Below are positions 17,334 through 55,472 of a DNA stretch of 64,000 bases, piece after piece. Origin of the DNA: a virus. Lineage: Duplodnaviria; Caudoviricetes. The stretch lies in the IMG/VR virus record IMGVR_UViG_3300005739_000025; one strand, 5' to 3'. Under the pieces are notes generated by a model. The model was not told the origin of the DNA and did no database searches. It saw only the letters and a list, made by a program, of their open reading frames with translations. Made by a program: the position numbers and the translations under genes. The first letter of the stretch is position 1, and every line of letters begins with the position of its first letter.

Positions 17334-17364
17334 ATTATTATTTATACGGCTACTATATAAAATG

Positions 17365-17820
17365 TGGAGATGAGGGGAGTTGAACCCCTGTCCATATAAC
17401 CTACACTTAAAGGTCTACATGTTTAAATGTCTTTAGCATTCTAGCCACCGTACGGTAACTTGGACTTTTAGGCTGCTTGGCGACACTAACCTTAGTTTTA
17501 AGTCTGCCTATAGATTATTATCGCAAACCTACATACGGAGGATTTTATTTTGTTACGTTGATACAGTCCACAGTTCAACTACCTCTGCTAGCAATGTAAT
17601 CTTAGAGGATCTAATTACAAGGACCTTAGGCTGCTAAGAGATACTCTTCTTCAGCGCCAACGAGGAACTCGTCAGCATTGTTAAAGATATACTCGGCTTC
17701 AGCCAAGATATCTGCAGTGTTATCTTCTGCATTTAGTTTTTAATCGATTTTTACGAGGCCATCGATCAACCTCGACATGCACTTAAAGTTTCAACTATAT
17801 GTCGAATCCAGTACATCCCC
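17365..17820 (-). ncRNA. ssrA: tmRNA (456 nt)
   Basis: 5' GGGGAUG pairs with 3' CAUCUCC-A including the G3.U70 Ala determinant; T arm AGGGG-UUCAACU-CCCCU; D-loop analog ACUGGAUUCGAC; PK1 (CGAGG/CCUCG and AUCGAU/AUCGAU); UAAAU-GCA resume context; tag ends LLAA-stop; CCA not encoded. Confidence 0.95.
17626..17730 (-). other. tmRNA tag reading frame: (A)AEDNTADILAEAEYIFNNADEFLVGAEEEYLLAA*
   Basis: 34 sense codons read by hand from resume GCA (17730) to TAA (17626-17628). Confidence 0.85.
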
Positions 17821-22000: not shown

Positions 22001-23913
22001 TATGTACTTGTGACCCTGCAAAAATGCTTACTCCAAATCAATGGAATCACATGGTTGTTACAAGAGATAATAATAGTATTTATAGTTATTATAAAAATGG
22101 TTCGCTTATGCTTTCCGGGACACCTGGAATGGGATTGTGGGGTAATGAAATTATATCCGGGCCTAGTAGCTTTCACGGTACATCTTTTACATTTGATGGT
22201 GCCGCGGGCTATTCTTCTGGTATCCTTGTAGGAAATACTACAGAGTTGTTGTCTCAAACAGCACCTCCAAGCGGTTTATTTGACTCCCTAGCAATTTGGA
22301 GAAAGGCTCTTAATCAAAATGAAGTTACAGAGCTTTATAATTCTGGAGCAGGTACTGAAGATTTTGCTTTTTATAAGCCTATAGTAGGACCAAAACTATG
22401 GCTCGGCGGCAGAGGTCAATTTAACAGAGAATTTGCTAATAGATTTCAAGATTATAGACCAACCATTAATACAACATTTGAATATAAAGGAGACTCATAT
22501 TGGGATAATGTAAGTTTGTATGCTCAATTTGATGGTACAGAAGCTTCTACAAATATTATAGATTCATCTAGTAATGCTGTAGAGTTATCGTCAACTAATG
22601 TAACAATATCTACAAATACTAAAAAATACGGATCTGGCTCAGGTTTCTTTAATGGTACAAGTTGTGCAATTACAACTCTATCTAGCGAAGATTATTGTCA
22701 TTTCGATGATGATGACTTTACAATTGAGTGGTGGGATTATATAGCAGGTTATTCAGGTTTTAGTAATTATAGTCCAATACTATTTTACGGCAACCCGGGA
22801 TTTTTACAACTTAATTCTATACCAGATGAAGAAAGATTTAATACATCTTTAGGTATAGCATACCATGGCAACAGAGATGATCATGTTGTAGTTTGGGTTG
22901 GTGGTTATCCAAACACTAAATTATATTTTAATACTGGTAGTAGAAGTCTCTCTACATGGAGTCATAACGCCTTAACAAGAAGTGGTTCTACATGGAGATT
23001 TTTTAGAGACGGTTTTTCAACTAATTTAAATTTTGGTAGTAGTAGGATTGGAGGCTATGGTGTTGTTGGGGGTCCAAGAACAGGCAGCATCGGCACAGCT
23101 TACATAGGGGGATATGAAAGTTTAAGAAATACTAATTTAGGACCACAACAATATTATTTTAATGGTTACATTGATGATTTAAGAATTACAAAACATGTAG
23201 CACGTTACACAACAAACTTTGTAGTACCCACAACATCATATCCTGTAGAACTGGGCGATATAATCGGTACAAGATTTAATAGAAATATGCCCCAAGGTCA
23301 GGCAGGATCCTTTGCAGTGGCACAAGAAACGGTTCCTGTAACATACCCCCATACACTAGTATTTGTAGGAAAAGCTGACGTAACAATTGGAAGTAGAACT
23401 ATTTTTCAAAACATACAAACAACATATAGTGATCAAAATATAAATCCTGATTTAAGAGGCGGTCAACAAATAGAAAGAGCTATCTTTAGTCGTGGAACTT
23501 TATTTGAAAATATTCCAGGATTATCCCCATCAAACGCACAAATAGATGCTAATGTAGGGGGATATTATACACCAACGGGCAATGAATGGTTTTACATTTC
23601 ATACAGTTTCCTAGGGCCAAACAACAATGATAATATTAGATATTATCTACAAACACCAACTGTATCAGGAGAAGGCATTCTCAACGGCTACAACGCACCA
23701 GGGTTTAATGGAATACCCGGGTTTGGTCTCGGAGGCTATGCTTTAGCTGGATATACTGGTAATTTAAATTCTATTCATCAAAATGCAAATATTATTCAAG
23801 GTATTGCAAGACTTGGAATTTATATTAATCAAGGTTTCCCTACACATAGTGACATGGTGTCATTATTCCAAACAGTAACTGCAGGCCCTGCCAACGATTT
23901 ACCATTACAATAA
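19099..23913 (+). CDS. Large multidomain virion/tail protein: Ig/FN3-like, metallophosphoesterase, PKD-like and two LamG/ConA-like domains
   Basis: Phosphoesterase motifs GDSN, HTGDIN, GNHD, CHRPPY, NGHGQ; LamG motifs FTVSMWVN...WNHMVVTR...DSLAIWRKAL and DFTIEWW...FNGYIDDLRITK. Confidence 0.75.
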   Translation: MSISTTNTENLGEARRTRNVYDNYDNLLSVVKYDKNERVDYVLKTKGNVPGKAVETQKLEQIQVDINRSATNLTAESATLRARVYKNDNSKVFETGFIYWVGNPRDNVLGKPRVRNIFNTPNVFKGNYSLNITDLQDTATYNYRAYVIHEYGTNYSEVNQFNTVDSTTIFSIAGDRFSGPSPLKVNLSAINAGFGDFTYAWNMTGGQIGFNYPLNSINITASGQGYTPTTNNYTLQSITIGMSGTAYDITDNIIVRVNGIPTPSLTANLGFNPTTLTYGITSVSVPNEPLSGYQTDNLKITFVAQSSASLFFVGIGDSNDLPYTDEALIASSIQTLDPAPEFILHTGDINQEDLSGKFVDNFLPLWNSSPLISSFYLAFGNHDLQGGDYGNYLFDYLPATRESIGSTNRTNKKYCYDFVKGLCHFFVINTGNNDIQSLGTAGDPFANINSQLDEIIPKIQASNSRWKIFVCHRPPYTNDVQHRQGFFNYNSTFWNNIESRLNFENLGIDVVLNGHGQQYSVFQKNGVYFIQNGFGGANRRGILEPFVPETVINITNLAGYIKYYVSFDDFRWEVINVENNNIVDERTISKTGTAGIPASGTGIGDSYIVTRENKVLVNNVYQPSLSAITYLDPETGYWSVSTIKFLTGPIIYSNSGTRAITLSTNGPVNQPATFTANTSIGITNADYLTRTITHTFSTGGNFIVRAFAILGNNIEKQAQRVVRVTGTSNFLPEWQSVLTSPFANNVIAAYDFRNLAGSPGINEYPFLLYTFEPSYVTVAGYSNNPAQNRSLFVKSPFIPDPLAGSIAVGGYTTQGIPLRLTSNSYIPFGIGGYDIGGYNTESLFGQGIIESGKALRFDPILLPAGYYYSANYPGGYYESQSWFAGGVGLDVAFDTRRPFTVSMWVNYTEFKDPGTKIFSILDWRSMPYSITQSTTALSIFKNAFNNEIIAGYGGEEPVAGYFTGYPMLCTCDPAKMLTPNQWNHMVVTRDNNSIYSYYKNGSLMLSGTPGMGLWGNEIISGPSSFHGTSFTFDGAAGYSSGILVGNTTELLSQTAPPSGLFDSLAIWRKALNQNEVTELYNSGAGTEDFAFYKPIVGPKLWLGGRGQFNREFANRFQDYRPTINTTFEYKGDSYWDNVSLYAQFDGTEASTNIIDSSSNAVELSSTNVTISTNTKKYGSGSGFFNGTSCAITTLSSEDYCHFDDDDFTIEWWDYIAGYSGFSNYSPILFYGNPGFLQLNSIPDEERFNTSLGIAYHGNRDDHVVVWVGGYPNTKLYFNTGSRSLSTWSHNALTRSGSTWRFFRDGFSTNLNFGSSRIGGYGVVGGPRTGSIGTAYIGGYESLRNTNLGPQQYYFNGYIDDLRITKHVARYTTNFVVPTTSYPVELGDIIGTRFNRNMPQGQAGSFAVAQETVPVTYPHTLVFVGKADVTIGSRTIFQNIQTTYSDQNINPDLRGGQQIERAIFSRGTLFENIPGLSPSNAQIDANVGGYYTPTGNEWFYISYSFLGPNNNDNIRYYLQTPTVSGEGILNGYNAPGFNGIPGFGLGGYALAGYTGNLNSIHQNANIIQGIARLGIYINQGFPTHSDMVSLFQTVTAGPANDLPLQ

Positions 23914-23921
23914 ATATACAT

Positions 23922-24917
23922 ATGAGAGTTAACTTAAACAAAGTTGCAGAACAGATTATACCTGAATACTGTCATAAGCAATTTGTTGACAATGTTTCGG
24001 AAATATCTCTACCACCCCTGTATCGTGGTGCACTTAGAACCTTTTACCCGTCTACAATTAAAAGACAGAAAAGTGGAGATAAACTTCGTAGATATATATT
24101 TACCTACAATTCAAACGGTAAGTTTGATTTTATTGCTACAAGACACGGGCAAAGAAACGGTGGTAATAATATAAGACCAGATGAAGTACAGTTAAATGTT
24201 ACATTAACAGACCCGGAAAATAATTTTGCAGTACTTAAAAGCAGAAATTTTAATAAAGTTTCTAATAATGTTTATACTTTTGGCCAGGTTACAAGAATTA
24301 TATATGTAAATCAAACTTATTACTGGCAAGAAAGACTTCCCGAGGATAATATTTTTAATAGTTTATATTATTCAGCACCAACAACAAATTCTTTAGAAAA
24401 TGCTGATAAAGAAAACGATGTAAACTGGTTTCAATTTGGTACAAATAAATATGTAATTGCAAATAGCACAGGCGTCGGTTTCTATAATAATAATACTTTA
24501 GTAGGTTTAAATAGTTGGCCTATTAAAAATGAAGAAATAAAAGTAAAAAGATATATTACACAGGATAGTCAAAATGTAAATTCTTTTTCTACTGATCTTG
24601 TTACTGAGACAAGACCAGTAATGCTTGACGACTCATATTTACATAAATGCTTTAACAATGTAAAGCTCGATGCTTATGACACGGTATTCGTAGAGGTATT
24701 ATGGAAAGAATACACCAATAAAACATCATTTAGAGCGAGTAAGCCAATATGGATTGGTGAATCATTTACTATTCCAGTACTAAAAGGTAGAGTTTATAGA
24801 GTCGGGACTTTGGCAAAGAGTAATGGCGTTAATGATTATGACGTCGTAACATTTGCACAAAGGACAAAAATTAAAACAACAAGAAATAAAAGAGGAGGAA
24901 ATACAGTTTATAGATAA
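23922..24917 (+). CDS. Hypothetical late protein directly upstream of the group I ribozyme
   Basis: 331-aa ORF; TAAATA 5 nt before ATG; no family recognised. Confidence 0.7.
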   Translation: MRVNLNKVAEQIIPEYCHKQFVDNVSEISLPPLYRGALRTFYPSTIKRQKSGDKLRRYIFTYNSNGKFDFIATRHGQRNGGNNIRPDEVQLNVTLTDPENNFAVLKSRNFNKVSNNVYTFGQVTRIIYVNQTYYWQERLPEDNIFNSLYYSAPTTNSLENADKENDVNWFQFGTNKYVIANSTGVGFYNNNTLVGLNSWPIKNEEIKVKRYITQDSQNVNSFSTDLVTETRPVMLDDSYLHKCFNNVKLDAYDTVFVEVLWKEYTNKTSFRASKPIWIGESFTIPVLKGRVYRVGTLAKSNGVNDYDVVTFAQRTKIKTTRNKRGGNTVYR

Positions 24918-24936
24918 AATGTAAAAAAATAATTTA

Positions 24937-25128
24937 GGCCCGTACTGGGTGAATTCGGTGAAGCCGTAACGTAAAGACGATGGTAATACCGAGCCAAGTT
25001 AGAAGCCAACTTCTAAAAGGTGTAGAGACTACTGGAGGTAAAATGGTTTACCTTAATAACCAGCTAGAGCGCCCAGCAGTACATTACTGAAGATATAGTC
25101 CACCCGTTGAGAAATCAATGAATATGTG
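24937..25128 (+). ncRNA. Group I intron/ribozyme catalytic core (IA-like, P7.1 insertion), no homing endonuclease
   Basis: P3 CUGGGUG(24945-51)/CGCCCAG(25070-76); P4 UUCGGU/ACCGAG; P5 GCCGU/AUGGU; P6a UUAGAAG-CCAA-CUUCUAA; J6/7-P7 GUAGA-GACUA(25027-31) with AAGAUA-UAGUC(25090-100); P7.1 AGGUAAA/UUUACCU; P8 CAGUA/UACUG; P9 CGUUGA-GAAA-UCAAUG; P9.0 AC(25102-03)/GU(25126-27) places omega-G at 25128. Confidence 0.9.
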
Positions 25129-25150
25129 TTGCCGTTAGGCGAAGGGGTCA

Positions 25151-27856
25151 ATGACACAAAACAGTGAGATAAGAGTATTAAATGAAATACTTAAAGACGG
25201 AATACGTATCAACGACGTAGAGCGTGATAACGTACAAAAATTCCGTGTATCAACTCCACAAGCAATGATTGATACCGATTTTGAATACTCATTGCAAGGT
25301 ACAAAATGGGAATTAGTTAACTTAAACAACAACGTACCTTCAGTATTTGCTCGTGCCAATGAACCTGCTTATACAGCAGAGCAAGTGAATAGCATTACTA
25401 TTTCACCTAGCGGTAGTAGAGATGTGGTAGTATCTGTTAATATTCAACCTGGAATTCCTTTTGCGGTTGGCAATCCTATCGTTTTAAAGGAAACAGCTGA
25501 CACAACTTATGTTGATGGTGCTTATGTAATTAAGGCCCTATCCGGTTCAAGAGCTTTTATTGTTACAACTAAATCTCCTGGTCCACTTTCTACCATAGGC
25601 ACTAACTTTAAAACCCCTTATACCACAATTTTTACAGGAGACTTCTATACCAATTCCCAAATTCTAACTTTAGGCCTTTCTGCTATATCAGGTACTAAAG
25701 ATGCAGTTATAGAATTTACTGAGCCGCACGCATTATTTTTGGATTCACCGATTACTGTAATTGACGTAGACAAGCCAGGAGCTACTTACATAGGCTCATT
25801 CAAAGTAAAAGACGTTTTATCAGATAGTATGGTAACGTTTGTTACAGATGAATCAAATAATTATGATAACAACAACTCTTTAGTTGAAAAACTTTCTAGT
25901 TTAAGAGTGTATGCTCGCGGTGAGGGAGTTGCAATACATAGATTTTTTGATGGTGGTGTACAAATTAACCCGGGTACAGCTTCACCAAACGCTCAAATTA
26001 TACGTCAAACAAGAAAATATTTTAGATACCAATCAGGTAAAAGCATGCAGTTTAGTACTGGAGTACTGTTAAAGCCTGTTTACGAAGTTACTAATGCTTA
26101 TGTTGACACAACAAATTTTGACTTATCTACATATTCTTTTTATGATTTTATTATAACCACAGAACAGTACCACGGGTTCTCTCCTGTTGATAGTCACCGT
26201 CAAGGTGCTATAGTTGAATTGGTTGGTTTTACTGTTACTAACGGTACAAACCCCTACAATAAAAGATTTGAAGTAGCGGAAGTAATAAATTCAAAAACAT
26301 TTAAAGTTAAAATACCGGTTAGTGAATTTAATCCATTTCCAACAACAGACTTAAACCCAGGTGGTATTGCAGAAGTAGAAGTTCAAGGTTGGAACGATGC
26401 AACAGTAAGAACTGGTATGTTTGATGATCAAAACGGAATATTTTTTGAATGTGATGGGGAGTCATTAACTGTGGTAAAAAGATATAGTACCACACCAACT
26501 AATGGAACAGTAAGTGTAAAAACAGGAAAGAGGTTAATGACATCTTTTGATGGAAATACCAAATTTAAAACTCAATTTACTGAAAATGATTACGCTGTAA
26601 TAAGAGGACAGTCTTACATGTTTTCTAGTATAGTAAATGACACTTCGGCTTACATAGTCCCTGCTTACAGAGGACCTGATGCTGATAATATAAAGATTTA
26701 TAAAACCTTAGAAGAAAGAATTAAACAAAGTGAATTTAATTTAGATAAACTTGACGGTACAGGTCCTTCTGGGTATGTTCTTGATTTAACAAGAATGCAA
26801 ATGGTGTTTATTGATTATTCTTGGTATGGAGCCGGAAAGATTAGATTCGGTGTCAGATCTACTGATGGTATTATTATATATTTCCACGAGATCTCCAATA
26901 ATAACGTTAACAGAAAAGCCTATATGCGCTCTGGTAATTTGCCTGGCCGTTTTGAAATTCAAAGCCGATCAAAAACAGGCACACTATTAACCTCTCTATC
27001 AACTAACACTTTGAGCGCGTTAGTATCTTTTACAGATGCTGCAAAGTTGCCTGAAAAAGGACGTATTATTGTAAACAATGAGTATATAAAATATACAAAA
27101 TCAATAACATCCACCAACAATGGTTTAATATTAAATTTCGATCAAAGAAATACAGCTAATCTATTAAATGGTCCTGTTACGGCTAACGTAGGAGATGGTT
27201 TTATATCTTATAATCAAAATTGTTCTCCAGCATTAAGTCATTGGGGTGTTTCAGTTATTATGGATGGTAATTTTGATCCAGACAAATCATATCTTTTTAC
27301 TGCTGCTACTTCTGGTAACTTTGCTGTTACACCTGATGAAAGAGCAATTTTATCAATTCGATTAGCACCGTCTGTAGATTTTGGTATTCCAGGATCTTTC
27401 GGTGTAAGAAGTCTTGTAAATAGATCATTAATTACACTAAAAAGTATAGGCGTTGCAGTAACAAGACCATCTCAGATTATAGCTAGAGTAAACGTAGAAG
27501 ATTCAAGATTTAAAATAGACAATAATTGGCTACCGGCCGGTAACGGTAGTATTGCTCAATATATGGATCATACTGGTTCTACAGGTACCTTCTCTGCATC
27601 TGGTAGAGGCGGAGACGTTGTGGCAGCGTTTTATATCACTCCAAATATTAACTTCGGTACAACTAGTAGAATTTGGATTAACGACGCATTTGATATTGAT
27701 GTTATTAGAGAATTGGGCAATAGTATTTTAGGTGGTAATAATTCATACCCTGATGGACCTGATATTCTCACATTATTTGTAAGAACTATCGAGGGTACAG
27801 GTAGTACTAACGGGGAAGCACGTGCTAGAATTTCCTGGACAGAAGCTCAAGGCTAA
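25151..27856 (+). CDS. Large virion structural protein, paralog of 12335..14041
   Basis: FRVSTPQAMIDTDFEY, RQTRKYFRYQSGKS, IDYSWYGAGKIRFG motifs; ends SWTEAQG. Confidence 0.7.
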   Translation: MTQNSEIRVLNEILKDGIRINDVERDNVQKFRVSTPQAMIDTDFEYSLQGTKWELVNLNNNVPSVFARANEPAYTAEQVNSITISPSGSRDVVVSVNIQPGIPFAVGNPIVLKETADTTYVDGAYVIKALSGSRAFIVTTKSPGPLSTIGTNFKTPYTTIFTGDFYTNSQILTLGLSAISGTKDAVIEFTEPHALFLDSPITVIDVDKPGATYIGSFKVKDVLSDSMVTFVTDESNNYDNNNSLVEKLSSLRVYARGEGVAIHRFFDGGVQINPGTASPNAQIIRQTRKYFRYQSGKSMQFSTGVLLKPVYEVTNAYVDTTNFDLSTYSFYDFIITTEQYHGFSPVDSHRQGAIVELVGFTVTNGTNPYNKRFEVAEVINSKTFKVKIPVSEFNPFPTTDLNPGGIAEVEVQGWNDATVRTGMFDDQNGIFFECDGESLTVVKRYSTTPTNGTVSVKTGKRLMTSFDGNTKFKTQFTENDYAVIRGQSYMFSSIVNDTSAYIVPAYRGPDADNIKIYKTLEERIKQSEFNLDKLDGTGPSGYVLDLTRMQMVFIDYSWYGAGKIRFGVRSTDGIIIYFHEISNNNVNRKAYMRSGNLPGRFEIQSRSKTGTLLTSLSTNTLSALVSFTDAAKLPEKGRIIVNNEYIKYTKSITSTNNGLILNFDQRNTANLLNGPVTANVGDGFISYNQNCSPALSHWGVSVIMDGNFDPDKSYLFTAATSGNFAVTPDERAILSIRLAPSVDFGIPGSFGVRSLVNRSLITLKSIGVAVTRPSQIIARVNVEDSRFKIDNNWLPAGNGSIAQYMDHTGSTGTFSASGRGGDVVAAFYITPNINFGTTSRIWINDAFDIDVIRELGNSILGGNNSYPDGPDILTLFVRTIEGTGSTNGEARARISWTEAQG

Positions 27857-34699: not shown

Positions 34700-34711
34700 T
34701 ATTTATAAATA
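34700..34711. promoter_or_regulatory. Palindromic double late promoter TATTTATAAATA
   Basis: TATAAATA on both strands, each exactly 5 nt from an ATG (34717 plus, 34694 minus). Confidence 0.8.
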
Positions 34712-34716
34712 ACTAT

Positions 34717-35253
34717 ATGGGTAAAAAGACCGATTTAATTAATATATACGAAACATATAAAAATGAAGTAGTGGAAGAACTCAATATTGGTGTACCTCAA
34801 GGAGGCCCCGCTTTACACCCTACATTAGACGCTCAACCAACCAACGATCATATGGTTGGAATTAAGATAAAAGACGAAGATAGCGAACATCTTCCTTGTA
34901 ACGAACCACAAGAAGATAATAATACTGGGATGGCAAAGAGTGAAACTTTTAGCATCCTTAAAAACGCAAATGATTTAATGAATCTATTACAAACGGTTCA
35001 AAAAGTAGAGCCATGGCAGCTAAGTAAATTAGTAAAAGCAAACGATTATATTACATCATTAAAAAATTCGTTAGAATATGATGAGTTTGAAAAATGTCAA
35101 AAAGATATGCAGACAGGTATGAATGACATAGCTAACGGAATGGTGGTTGTATCTAAGATTAAAGATATGTTAACAGGCGAGGATATGGGTGTTAACGAAG
35201 AAGTGTTAAAACAAGTAATCTTTAATATTGAGTGTCTAAAAGAAAATAATTAA
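34717..35253 (+). CDS. Hypothetical late protein (probable head-internal protein)
   Basis: Late promoter; VEPWQLSKLVKANDYI motif. Confidence 0.6.
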   Translation: MGKKTDLINIYETYKNEVVEELNIGVPQGGPALHPTLDAQPTNDHMVGIKIKDEDSEHLPCNEPQEDNNTGMAKSETFSILKNANDLMNLLQTVQKVEPWQLSKLVKANDYITSLKNSLEYDEFEKCQKDMQTGMNDIANGMVVVSKIKDMLTGEDMGVNEEVLKQVIFNIECLKENN

Positions 35254-54581: not shown

Positions 54582-55472
54582 GTGAATGCTAATTATATAC
54601 ACGTTTTTACAGATGCAGATCTAGATGGTGCCATAAGCTACTTAACACTTTGTTGGTTTATTGGGAAGGATTTGCCTGTAACAGCAACCACAGAAAAAGC
54701 TTTTGGAGAAGATTTTAAGAAATTTTCTCTTAGCAATGACATAAACAATTATACAAGAATTTATGTTCTTGATATAGACATTTGTAGTTACGCATCTCAA
54801 TTAGATAGACCTAATTTTAGTTTAGTCGATCACCATTTAGGTAGTATTGAATGTGGGTATAATTTTAAACACGCAAGACACAAGATAGAGGACAGTGGTA
54901 GTACATGTAAGCTTTTATACAACGTATTAAAAAATCATTATAATAAGGATATTGATGCATCTAAAAAACTATTAGTGTCTATTGGTCATGATTATGATAG
55001 CTACACATTAAAAAATAGAGAGCTCTCTATTGGGTTAAATATGTTGTTTTGGAACTTGCAAGGCAATAGACTAGAAAAATTTAAAGAGAGATATAAAAAC
55101 GGTTTTAAAGAATTTACCAACGAAGATTTAAAAATAATTTCTTTTTATAAAAATAAAATTAATAAACATTTACAAGATAATCATATTTTTTCTGGTGTGA
55201 TTCCTATGGGCGGAAAAAATGTAAAGGTTTCATCTGTATTTGCAGACTTTTGTATCAATGAAGTTGCACAAGAAGTTCTTACAAGAACAAATAGCGAAGT
55301 TGCAATTATAGTTAATCCAAAAACTGAATCAGTATCTTTTAGAAAAGCTTCGGGGTCTGATTTAAATGTGGCTAAGCTTGCGGCAAAAATAGCTGACGGT
55401 GGTGGTCATCCAAGTGCTGCTGGGGGTAAAATAACAGAAAGCTTTATGGAGTTCACAAAATTACTAAAATGA
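54582..55472 (+). CDS. DHH/DHHA1 family phosphoesterase
   Basis: TDADLDG, VLDI, VDHH, GGGHPSAAGG. Confidence 0.88.
   Translation: MNANYIHVFTDADLDGAISYLTLCWFIGKDLPVTATTEKAFGEDFKKFSLSNDINNYTRIYVLDIDICSYASQLDRPNFSLVDHHLGSIECGYNFKHARHKIEDSGSTCKLLYNVLKNHYNKDIDASKKLLVSIGHDYDSYTLKNRELSIGLNMLFWNLQGNRLEKFKERYKNGFKEFTNEDLKIISFYKNKINKHLQDNHIFSGVIPMGGKNVKVSSVFADFCINEVAQEVLTRTNSEVAIIVNPKTESVSFRKASGSDLNVAKLAAKIADGGGHPSAAGGKITESFMEFTKLLK

Follow-up and report, generated by a model that had tools for sequence, protein, structure and literature searches.

A guide-first, td-like group I ribozyme beside a phage start codon, with a permuted layout that may serve to free a near-leaderless messenger

Introduction

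What would a complete group I ribozyme be doing in the gap between two phage genes, where its removal puts no gene together? Group I ribozymes are textbook selfish introns, and to our knowledge their natural reuse is limited to the lariat-capping ribozyme of eukaryotes and one riboswitch-controlled ribozyme of a 5′ untranslated region (5′ UTR). The question is raised by a stretch of 64,000 nucleotides (nt) of viral DNA (Duplodnaviria; Caudoviricetes; IMG/VR record IMGVR_UViG_3300005739_000025), called the window in what follows, in which an initial annotation, made from the letters alone, had recognized an orphan group I ribozyme at 24937-25128 (+). The element sits between the TAA (24915-17) of an open reading frame (ORF) of 331 amino acids (aa) and the ATG (25151) of another of 901 aa, and it contains no internal ORF. 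The interpretation to which we incline, with modest confidence, is that of a permuted, guide-first, td-like ribozyme that would act on its own transcript, in such a way that a guanosine-dependent cut after U25148 would free a near-leaderless mRNA.

Results

An intact core under selection

The Rfam group I model (RF00028) matches the window at 24899-25121 (+) with 70.7 bits (E 6e-16; the gathering score is 50), and a family scan of 24850-25260 returned no family but this one, even at E<=10. The same scan thus gives no match to the lariat-capping (GIR1) family and none to a riboswitch of the kind that governs the c-di-GMP-II allosteric ribozyme, and the 19 nt upstream of the element are an A/U-rich spacer. 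Read directly from the sequence and from the minimum-energy fold, 24937-25128 is an intact core of subgroup IA similar to that of T4 td: the helices P3 to P8, with P7 and J8/7, form the fold of the group I ribozymes, P7.1 and P7.1a are inserted between P7 and the 3′ strand of P3, where they are conserved or covary as befits subgroup IA, and all of these, together with P9 and P9.0, pair as the initial annotation had stated. Its account of the surroundings also holds, as the element lies between the stop at 24917 and the start at 25151 and the list of ORFs shows no homing endonuclease inside it.

Relatives were gathered by means of a 19-20-mer from P7/P7.1, which gave 25 viral and 90 metagenomic loci; alignment A1 comprises 27 distinct ribozymes, and Python was used to count its pairs and to run the controls. 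Fifteen distinct sequences share the context of the window, that is, a homolog of the 331-aa protein (ending in ...RGG-x-T-x-x-x-stop), a spacer, the ribozyme, and the ATG of a homolog of the 901-aa protein. Throughout A1, P7 and J8/7 do not vary at all, and rich covariation is seen in P3, P6a, P7.1a, and P8, so that the check by RF00028 and by covariation among homologs that had been proposed for this locus comes out in favor of the ribozyme. The members of the family are 71-85% identical to the core, although the upstream protein is only 31-56% identical, and the persistence of the RNA while the protein drops to 31% argues for purifying selection and not for decay. At the level of sequence comparison, the ribozyme is thereby confirmed as real, conserved, and under selection, as had been supposed from the pairing of its helices.

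A guide whose partner lies downstream

The element starts with UAAUUUAGGCCCG, which agrees in 11 of 13 bases, and in the same register, with the UAAUUGAGGCCUG that opens the T4 td intron (T4 record); as previously noted, no 5′ exon is found in the usual place, the guide having no pairing partner upstream. The partner occurs in cis at the other end of the element. The guide or internal guide sequence (IGS), GGCCC (24937-41), which connects to P3 via GUA (24942-44), pairs with GGGUC (25145-49), 204 nt downstream and 17 nt past the td-like 3′ end, and this long-range helix is present in the minimum-energy folds of both the window element and its relative on contig L027. In the second pair, U25148.G24938 is a wobble, and the predicted cut, U25148↓C25149 (the arrow denotes here and below a known or predicted junction), falls 2 nt before the ATG. 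In other words, the components of a group I P1 are all in place, a guide, a partner strand that ends in U, and the U.G wobble between them, with the order of the strands reversed with respect to the canonical hairpin. In the ordinary introns of ribonucleotide-reductase (RNR) genes that belong to the same family, a short guide candidate, GCGU, was located by eye about 6 nt before P3 (the intron borders being taken from protein homology), which implies that GGCCC occupies the position of a guide.

In each member of the family, five bases situated 2-4 nt before P3 (8 nt in the Flavobacterium phage immuto) pair with a 5-mer after P9. In A1, 135 of 135 P1 pair cells are standard, a perfect score that is partly built in, as the substrate 5-mers were found through a search for complementarity, which weighs against our interpretation. 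The support that is independent of that search consists of the matched changes in the two strands and of the position of the site at the ATG. With regard to the former, pair 2 is G.U in 27/27, and two-sided changes affect pair 1 (G-C to C-G in L003 and to U-A in L135), pair 3 (C-G to U-A in the immuto type), and pair 5 (C-G to G-C in L162), so that the guide CGCCC goes with the site GGGUG, UGCCC with GGGUA, GGCCG with CGGUC and, in immuto, GGUCC with GGAUC; within the group that shares the gene context, three variant guides each meet the matching variant site. A U.G that never changes while the Watson-Crick pairs next to it covary is what characterizes the P1 of group I introns, in which the reactive bond follows the U. 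When the partner strand was slid by one column, pairing fell to 56-59%, and when the 3′ strands were reassigned among the sequences, full pairing in 27/27 was never reached in 10,000 trials.

With regard to position, the distance from the end of the site to the conserved ATG that follows is 0-6 nt (0, 2, 3, 5, or 6 nt) in 15/15 contigs with the same gene context, and for L135 the predicted cut reads GGGU↓AUG. The chance of such a placement is about 0.007 per sequence, at roughly one GGGU[CU] per kb. In the window, the motif occurs some 130 times, and the only other guide match adjacent to the start of an ORF is GGGUU at 55032, 4 nt before the ATG of the ORF 55041-55472, a single case that fits chance.

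The initial annotation had concluded that this would be a natural trans-acting or mRNA-processing ribozyme, and of these two proposals the guide-first processing of RNA is retained, while action in trans is not, since the cis partner at 25145-49 had been overlooked and a guide of 5 nt, with the number of sites just mentioned, would be unspecific in trans. A ribozyme transcribed from a promoter near 24926, and cutting the initiator tRNA or other messages of the phage or the host, would indeed be suggested by the guide-first layout, by the TAAATA-like motifs in the spacers of relatives, and by the exact TAAATA and conserved leader that precede the stand-alone forms described below. With a covarying and perfectly placed partner in cis, a 5-base pair (bp) guide that matches about one site per kb, and no conserved trans target found when the GGGU[CU] sites of the window were scanned, we regard this as extremely unlikely.

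A candidate 3′ splice site and a permuted order of parts

In all members (27/27), a scripted scan found a G located 6-12 nt beyond P9 and preceded by two bases that pair with J7/9. The resulting P9.0 has 2-4 bp and is specific to each lineage (AC/GU, GC/GU, GA/UC, AA/UU, AU/AU, UU/AA), and the base after this candidate omega-G can pair with the first base of the guide, in the manner of P10, in 23-24 of the 27, G standing opposite C in L003; these pairings are short and could easily be due to chance in part, which limits the assignment of omega-G. The position of the 3′ end was calibrated on the RNR introns, in which the junction is set by the protein reading frame and lies 7-11 nt beyond P9 in those that have a P9, and on T4 td, whose intron ends in AACAUAAUG↓C after P9, P9.1, and P9.2. 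The tails of immuto (AACAUAAAUG↓U) and of the window (AAUAUGUG↓U) stand 8-12 nt after P9 and resemble this td end. Exon borders of the tRNA-associated relatives were left out of the calibration, and ARAGORN did not call the intron-split tRNA genes of these relatives. Taken together, these data make G25128 the probable omega-G.

Introns with the same core occur in the RNR genes of L012, L007, L021, L108, L146, L141, and others. In them AAU↓GCGCU (the last 3 nt of exon 1 and the first 5 of the intron) pairs with the 8 nt that open exon 2, GGCGCAUU, in a helix that covaries between phages and was matched to no named group I pairing.

Since the guide stands before the core and GGGU after the candidate omega-G, the predicted order, guide, core, omega-G, a segment X, GGGU, and ATG, is that of a permuted intron-exon layout. 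Segment X plus GGGU measures 20 nt in the window (25129-25148) and 18-19 nt in immuto; other relatives have about 56-90 nt, and their longer X segments bear covarying GC-rich hairpins. Would the device then have been selected for a small RNA circle (25129-25148 in the window, and 18-90 nt in relatives), the cut at the start codon being a side effect? Both determinants resembling splice sites are conserved, including in immuto, which has no ORF at this place, and in the stand-alone forms led by TAAATA, and the hairpins of X in relatives point in the same direction. We nevertheless judge this unlikely, given that X is only 20 nt long here and 18-19 nt in immuto, with no sequence conserved between lineages, that omega-G is deduced from homology and a P9.0 of 2 bp, and that the placement 0-6 nt before the ATG in 15/15 would be left unexplained.

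A further pairing involves the start codon itself. A helix of 7 bp between UGUGUUG (25125-31) and UGACACA (25152-58) could form, and helices of this type recur at the same position with different sequences in four lineages (including L028, the L027 group, and the L017 group) and are absent in three. It overlaps the 3′ strand of P9.0, and the two pairings are mutually exclusive. One might suppose that the long-range helix, together with this one, is structural or regulatory, hiding the start of the 901-aa gene or closing the fold with no cleavage at all: the pairing adjoins the start codon, the second helix over the UG of AUG is found in those four lineages, and the GGGG/GGGU stretch could act as a weak ribosome-binding site. 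For such a role, however, a simple hairpin would suffice, so that the conserved catalytic core, the invariant G.U, and the J4/5 and J8/7 that read the wobble would have no explanation, and ribosome-binding sites are almost lacking in the other genes of this phage; we therefore see this as an improbable account, albeit one that deserves some weight.

The coordinates of the element and of its surroundings are given in Table 1.

Table 1. Parts of the ribozyme and neighboring features in the window
Feature	Position	Strand	Basis or remark
Upstream ORF, 331 aa	23922..24917	+	own TAAATA-N5-ATG start; end ...RGGNTVYR-stop
Spacer, A/U-rich	24918..24936	+	contains AAAATA 24926-31, one mismatch from TAAATA
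Guide (IGS) strand of P1, GGCCC	24937..24941	+	td guide register, covariation
Catalytic core P3, P4-P6a, P7, P7.1/P7.1a, P8, J8/7	24945..25100	+	RF00028, alignment A1
P3	24945-51/25070-76	+	sequence reading and minimum-energy fold
P4, P5, P6/P6a	between P3 and P7	+	sequence reading and minimum-energy fold
P7 (guanosine-binding helix)	25027-31/25096-25100	+	invariant across alignment A1
P7.1	25032-35/25060-63	+	subgroup-IA insertion
P7.1a	25036-42/25047-53	+	subgroup-IA insertion
P8, 5 bp	25077-89	+	sequence reading and minimum-energy fold
J7/9, P9, 3′ strand of P9.0, candidate omega-G	25101..25128	+	27 family members, td comparison
P9 hairpin, GAAA loop	25106-19	+	sequence reading and minimum-energy fold
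P9.0	AC 25102-03 / GU 25126-27	+	positions candidate omega-G
Candidate omega-G	G25128	+	P9.0 and td-like tail
Possible masking helix, 7 bp	25125..25158	+	covers omega-G and UG of start codon
First part of segment X	25129..25144	+	small hairpin 25130-41
P1 substrate strand GGGUC	25145..25149	+	minimum-energy fold, covariation, position at ATG
Downstream ORF, 901 aa, virion structural protein	25151..27856	+	phrog_5838, E 8e-178

Relatives with other layouts

The collection of isolated phages that was searched does not include this one, and the closest ribozyme in it is that of immuto, 78% identical (MW353175 ~145035-145270; L002:2986-3220), which has the same layout, GGUCC ... AAAUG↓U ... GGAU↓C, with a hypothetical gene on one side and a terminator hairpin on the other. 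An annotated gene of 44 aa, immuto26A_226 (L002:3036-3170), falls wholly within this ribozyme and is probably not a real gene.

A second group is formed by stand-alone relatives (L009:8792-9101 (+), L006:5924-6241 (-), L157:3723-4054, L175:358-718), which begin with an exact TAAATA and then a conserved leader, AGUUCUUU, that forms with the 3′ end a helix of 16-24 bp, followed by a run of U. After P9, just inside this closing helix, they carry a P1-like hairpin, GGGUA-loop-UGCCC, and the form of L009 has a fold z of -6.3. From their order of parts they look like the same ribozyme opened in P2 rather than in P1, with an RNA gene of its own. In a third group (L011:5199-5485 (-), L014, L016, L026, L150, L163), TAAATA, AGUUCUUU, GGCCC, the core, and GGGUC follow one another, and after GGGUC there are more than 150 nt of repeat-containing and apparently structured RNA (motifs CCUAUAAAAA-GGAAG) with no ORF.

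Flanking genes, promoters, and the absence of a splice

The 331-aa protein has no PHROG family and no tblastn match among phage records. Its homologs (56% identical in L028 and about 31% in L017, L027, and L003) were found only on contigs that also bear the ribozyme and the 901-aa gene, and the C-terminus and the stop codon of these homologs are at the same place; thus the three remain linked down to 31% protein identity. The 901-aa protein is 35% identical to SRSM4_036 of the cyanomyovirus S-RSM4, from residue 79 of that protein onwards, and its start Met is conserved among the relatives. Eighty other relatives of this protein have no ribozyme, and these ribozyme-less homologs (L029-L107 among them) are longer by 55-240 aa at the N-terminus and often have a GGAG ribosome-binding site. 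The ribozyme-bearing lineage has no such extension and has a separate 331-aa gene upstream instead. The proposal that the 331-aa ORF would be that N-terminal extension was rejected, no similarity having been found. No terminator was found on the + strand between the two genes, which makes their co-transcription possible.

The motif TAAATA-N4-6-ATG precedes 11 of the 75 ORFs of at least 80 aa, as opposed to 14 of the 1886 ATGs of the window, examples being 23912-23924, 34706-34719, 17333 (-), and 52548 (-), and almost no gene in the window has a ribosome-binding site. If this TAAATA is, as we presume, a late promoter of the T4 type, late messages would begin at or beside the ATG, and the late mRNAs of this phage look leaderless. 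The 901-aa gene, unlike other late genes, is not preceded by TAAATA-N5-ATG. Two further observations on the gene content concern the full-length transfer-messenger RNA (tmRNA) gene of the window at 17362-17820 (-) (RF00023, 144.6 bits) and that of the related contig L027 (10914-11325), which is accompanied by three tRNA genes.

As for the spacer before the ribozyme, in the relatives it comprises 12-21 nt, is rich in A/U, and has no G; in several of them it contains an exact TAAATA 6-13 nt before the guide. At the place of the late promoter that had been proposed for the window there is only an AAAATA, with one mismatch, and a start exactly at G24937 is uncertain. The ribozyme may additionally head a late transcript of its own through the TAAATA of the spacer, although for the window this is doubtful.

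Spacers that contain no G make an upstream P1 impossible, and this bears directly on ordinary splicing in cis, which would join U24911 either to the sequence after G25128, replacing the last residue of the 331-aa protein by 12 others, or to that after G25144, fusing the two ORFs in frame. It is true that a stop codon at the start of an intron is typical of phage introns (PMC2504315) and is present here, that U24911 joined to G25145 is in frame in the window, and that the ribozyme-less homologs have those 55-240 additional N-terminal aa. The weak P1 (24907-11/24921-25) put forward in the initial annotation as a means of exchanging the C-terminus fails, since it needs G24921 and a G is found there in 0/14 relatives. 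The in-frame fusion was discarded as well, because L028, L027, L017, and L003 have U or A before GGGUC, so that no omega-G exists there, because in L003 a TGA directly abuts the ATG, and because the spacings are not multiples of 3; the TGA and the varying spacing indicate that the stretch before the ATG is non-coding. If we add the C-terminus and stop of the upstream protein, conserved in place, and its lack of resemblance to the N-terminal extensions, ordinary splicing becomes very unlikely. An intron has a 5′ exon upstream of its guide, and its removal restores a gene; in this locus the genes on the two sides of the element are separate, the stop of the one and the start of the other being conserved.

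Public sequencing runs

Among the public runs searched for the window, none contained this phage, the best share of words being 0.12, and three runs that were examined held only pieces of the conserved core of relatives. In a freshwater metatranscriptome (run X20), a contig of 179 nt with a word depth of 73 covers 24956-25128 and is 95-99% like the core; it ends 5 nt past the position of omega-G, which is indistinguishable from a break of the assembly at the edge of a conserved block. The contig may stem from a close relative whose ribozyme RNA is abundant, or it may be an artefact of assembly.

Discussion

The locus unites an intact group I core, a covarying long-range pairing, a site fixed at the start codon, and no splice that would restore an exon. 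The permuted, guide-first reading brings these together in a mechanism whose cleavage, nucleophile, second step, and benefit for translation we infer from the arrangement of the parts. Guanosine or GTP held in P7 would attack the bond between U25148 and C25149, and the cut would separate the upstream RNA, with the ribozyme still attached to it, from the mRNA of the 901-aa protein. The freed messenger would start with G-CA-AUG, that is, an added G and a leader of 2 nt, and would thus resemble the leaderless starts that the TAAATA-N5-ATG promoters apparently give to other late genes. As P9.0 and omega-G appear to have been retained, a second step is possible, in which the 3′ hydroxyl of U25148 would attack after G25128, closing 25129-25148 into a circle of 20 nt by back-splicing and leaving an upstream RNA that ends in omega-G. 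The helix 25125-31/25152-58 may keep both the start codon and omega-G masked as long as the reaction has not taken place. A broader version, which we offer only tentatively, is that freshwater T4-like phages harbor a family of permuted ribozymes performing both steps, which in the present case would mean the release of an mRNA with an added G, followed by the unmasking of the start codon and the formation of a 20-nt mini-circle.

Apart from the complementarity search mentioned above, several considerations weigh against release of the messenger: (i) in immuto and other sub-groups, what follows GG(G/A)U↓ is a terminator or a structured RNA and not an ORF, so that the making of an mRNA 5′ end is ruled out as the general role of the family; (ii) a messenger that keeps a leader of 2-7 nt is, strictly speaking, not leaderless; (iii) and finally, the predicted geometry has a joint of 3 nt between the guide and P3, and a substrate strand that would arrive from the 3′ side. 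It may be, then, that the common role of the family is the formation of circles or 3′ processing, and that cutting at the start codon is specific to a lineage.

If the permuted, guide-first reading is correct, this would be the third natural reuse of group I ribozymes, one in which the full splicing core has been kept and aimed at a start codon. Among viruses it would be the first natural ribozyme of group I with a guide-first or permuted layout, which has so far belonged to engineering alone. It would also link the chemistry of ribozymes with the leaderless type of translation of late phage genes, and natural elements as compact as these (~215 nt) could provide scaffolds for circularizing RNA or for setting the 5′ end of an mRNA.

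The nearest known system by fold is T4 td with the phage IA introns (td, nrdB, nrdD/sunY), which share the core with its P7.1 insertion, the P9 hairpin, and a similarly placed 3′ tail. In T4 td, the guide and the sequence preceding it match those of the window (UAAUU-AGGCC), the G opposite the U of the splice site standing in the same register, and where T4 td reads GGGU↓UAAUUGAGGCCUGAGUA the window reads UAAUUUAGGCCCGUA, again in the same register (T4 record). In T4 td, however, the GGGU strand is upstream and forms the end of exon 1, and thymidylate synthase is regained through splicing, whereas in the window it lies downstream of the core and no gene is restored; compared with the td group, moreover, the window element has neither a homing endonuclease nor P2. 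By its predicted fold it is, therefore, a td-like ribozyme of subgroup IA, and by its apparent function it fails the test that defines an intron, because nothing is restored.

As regards function, the lariat-capping ribozyme (GIR1) of twin-ribozyme introns, as cited in PMC8637638, is derived from group I, does not splice, cuts upstream of an ORF, and makes the 5′ end of an mRNA. The likeness resides in the predicted cut just before an ORF and the new 5′ end that would result, and the difference in the remodelled core of GIR1, which forms a 2′,5′ lariat of 3 nt by branching, as against an ordinary group I core with a G.U and a candidate omega-G. The c-di-GMP-controlled group I ribozyme of Clostridioides difficile is located in a 5′ UTR, and its choice of reaction site beside the start codon decides whether the downstream gene is translated (PMC3984707). 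The two are alike in lying outside coding sequence and next to a start codon, but the bacterial ribozyme has the normal order of exons, an upstream aptamer, and a splicing reaction that builds a ribosome-binding site, none of which is found in the window.

With respect to the order of parts, natural circularly permuted group II introns exist (PMC8637638), and the group I intron ND5-717 of coral mitochondria back-splices (PMC6545197). Both show parts or exons naturally out of order, with RNA circles as the result, although the former belong to another class of ribozymes, the latter back-splices from a circular or giant transcript, and neither is placed at a start codon. These are the nearest published cases, and full-text searches of the literature brought up no phage or bacterial example of a natural guide-first or permuted group I ribozyme.

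The closest counterparts in layout thus come from the laboratory. Engineered permuted intron-exon (PIE) constructs consist of a guide, the core, omega-G, an insert, and the 5′ splice site, and are used to circularize the insert, while the L-21 ribozyme of Tetrahymena carries its guide at the 5′ end. The window element is like PIE in the order of its parts and like L-21 in the position of its guide, but unlike either it is natural and conserved among phages, is opened in the loop of P1, has a very short insert, and bears an mRNA as its 3′ trailer. It would be, if the reading holds, the natural counterpart of both designs, serving the expression of a gene and not the propagation of a selfish intron.
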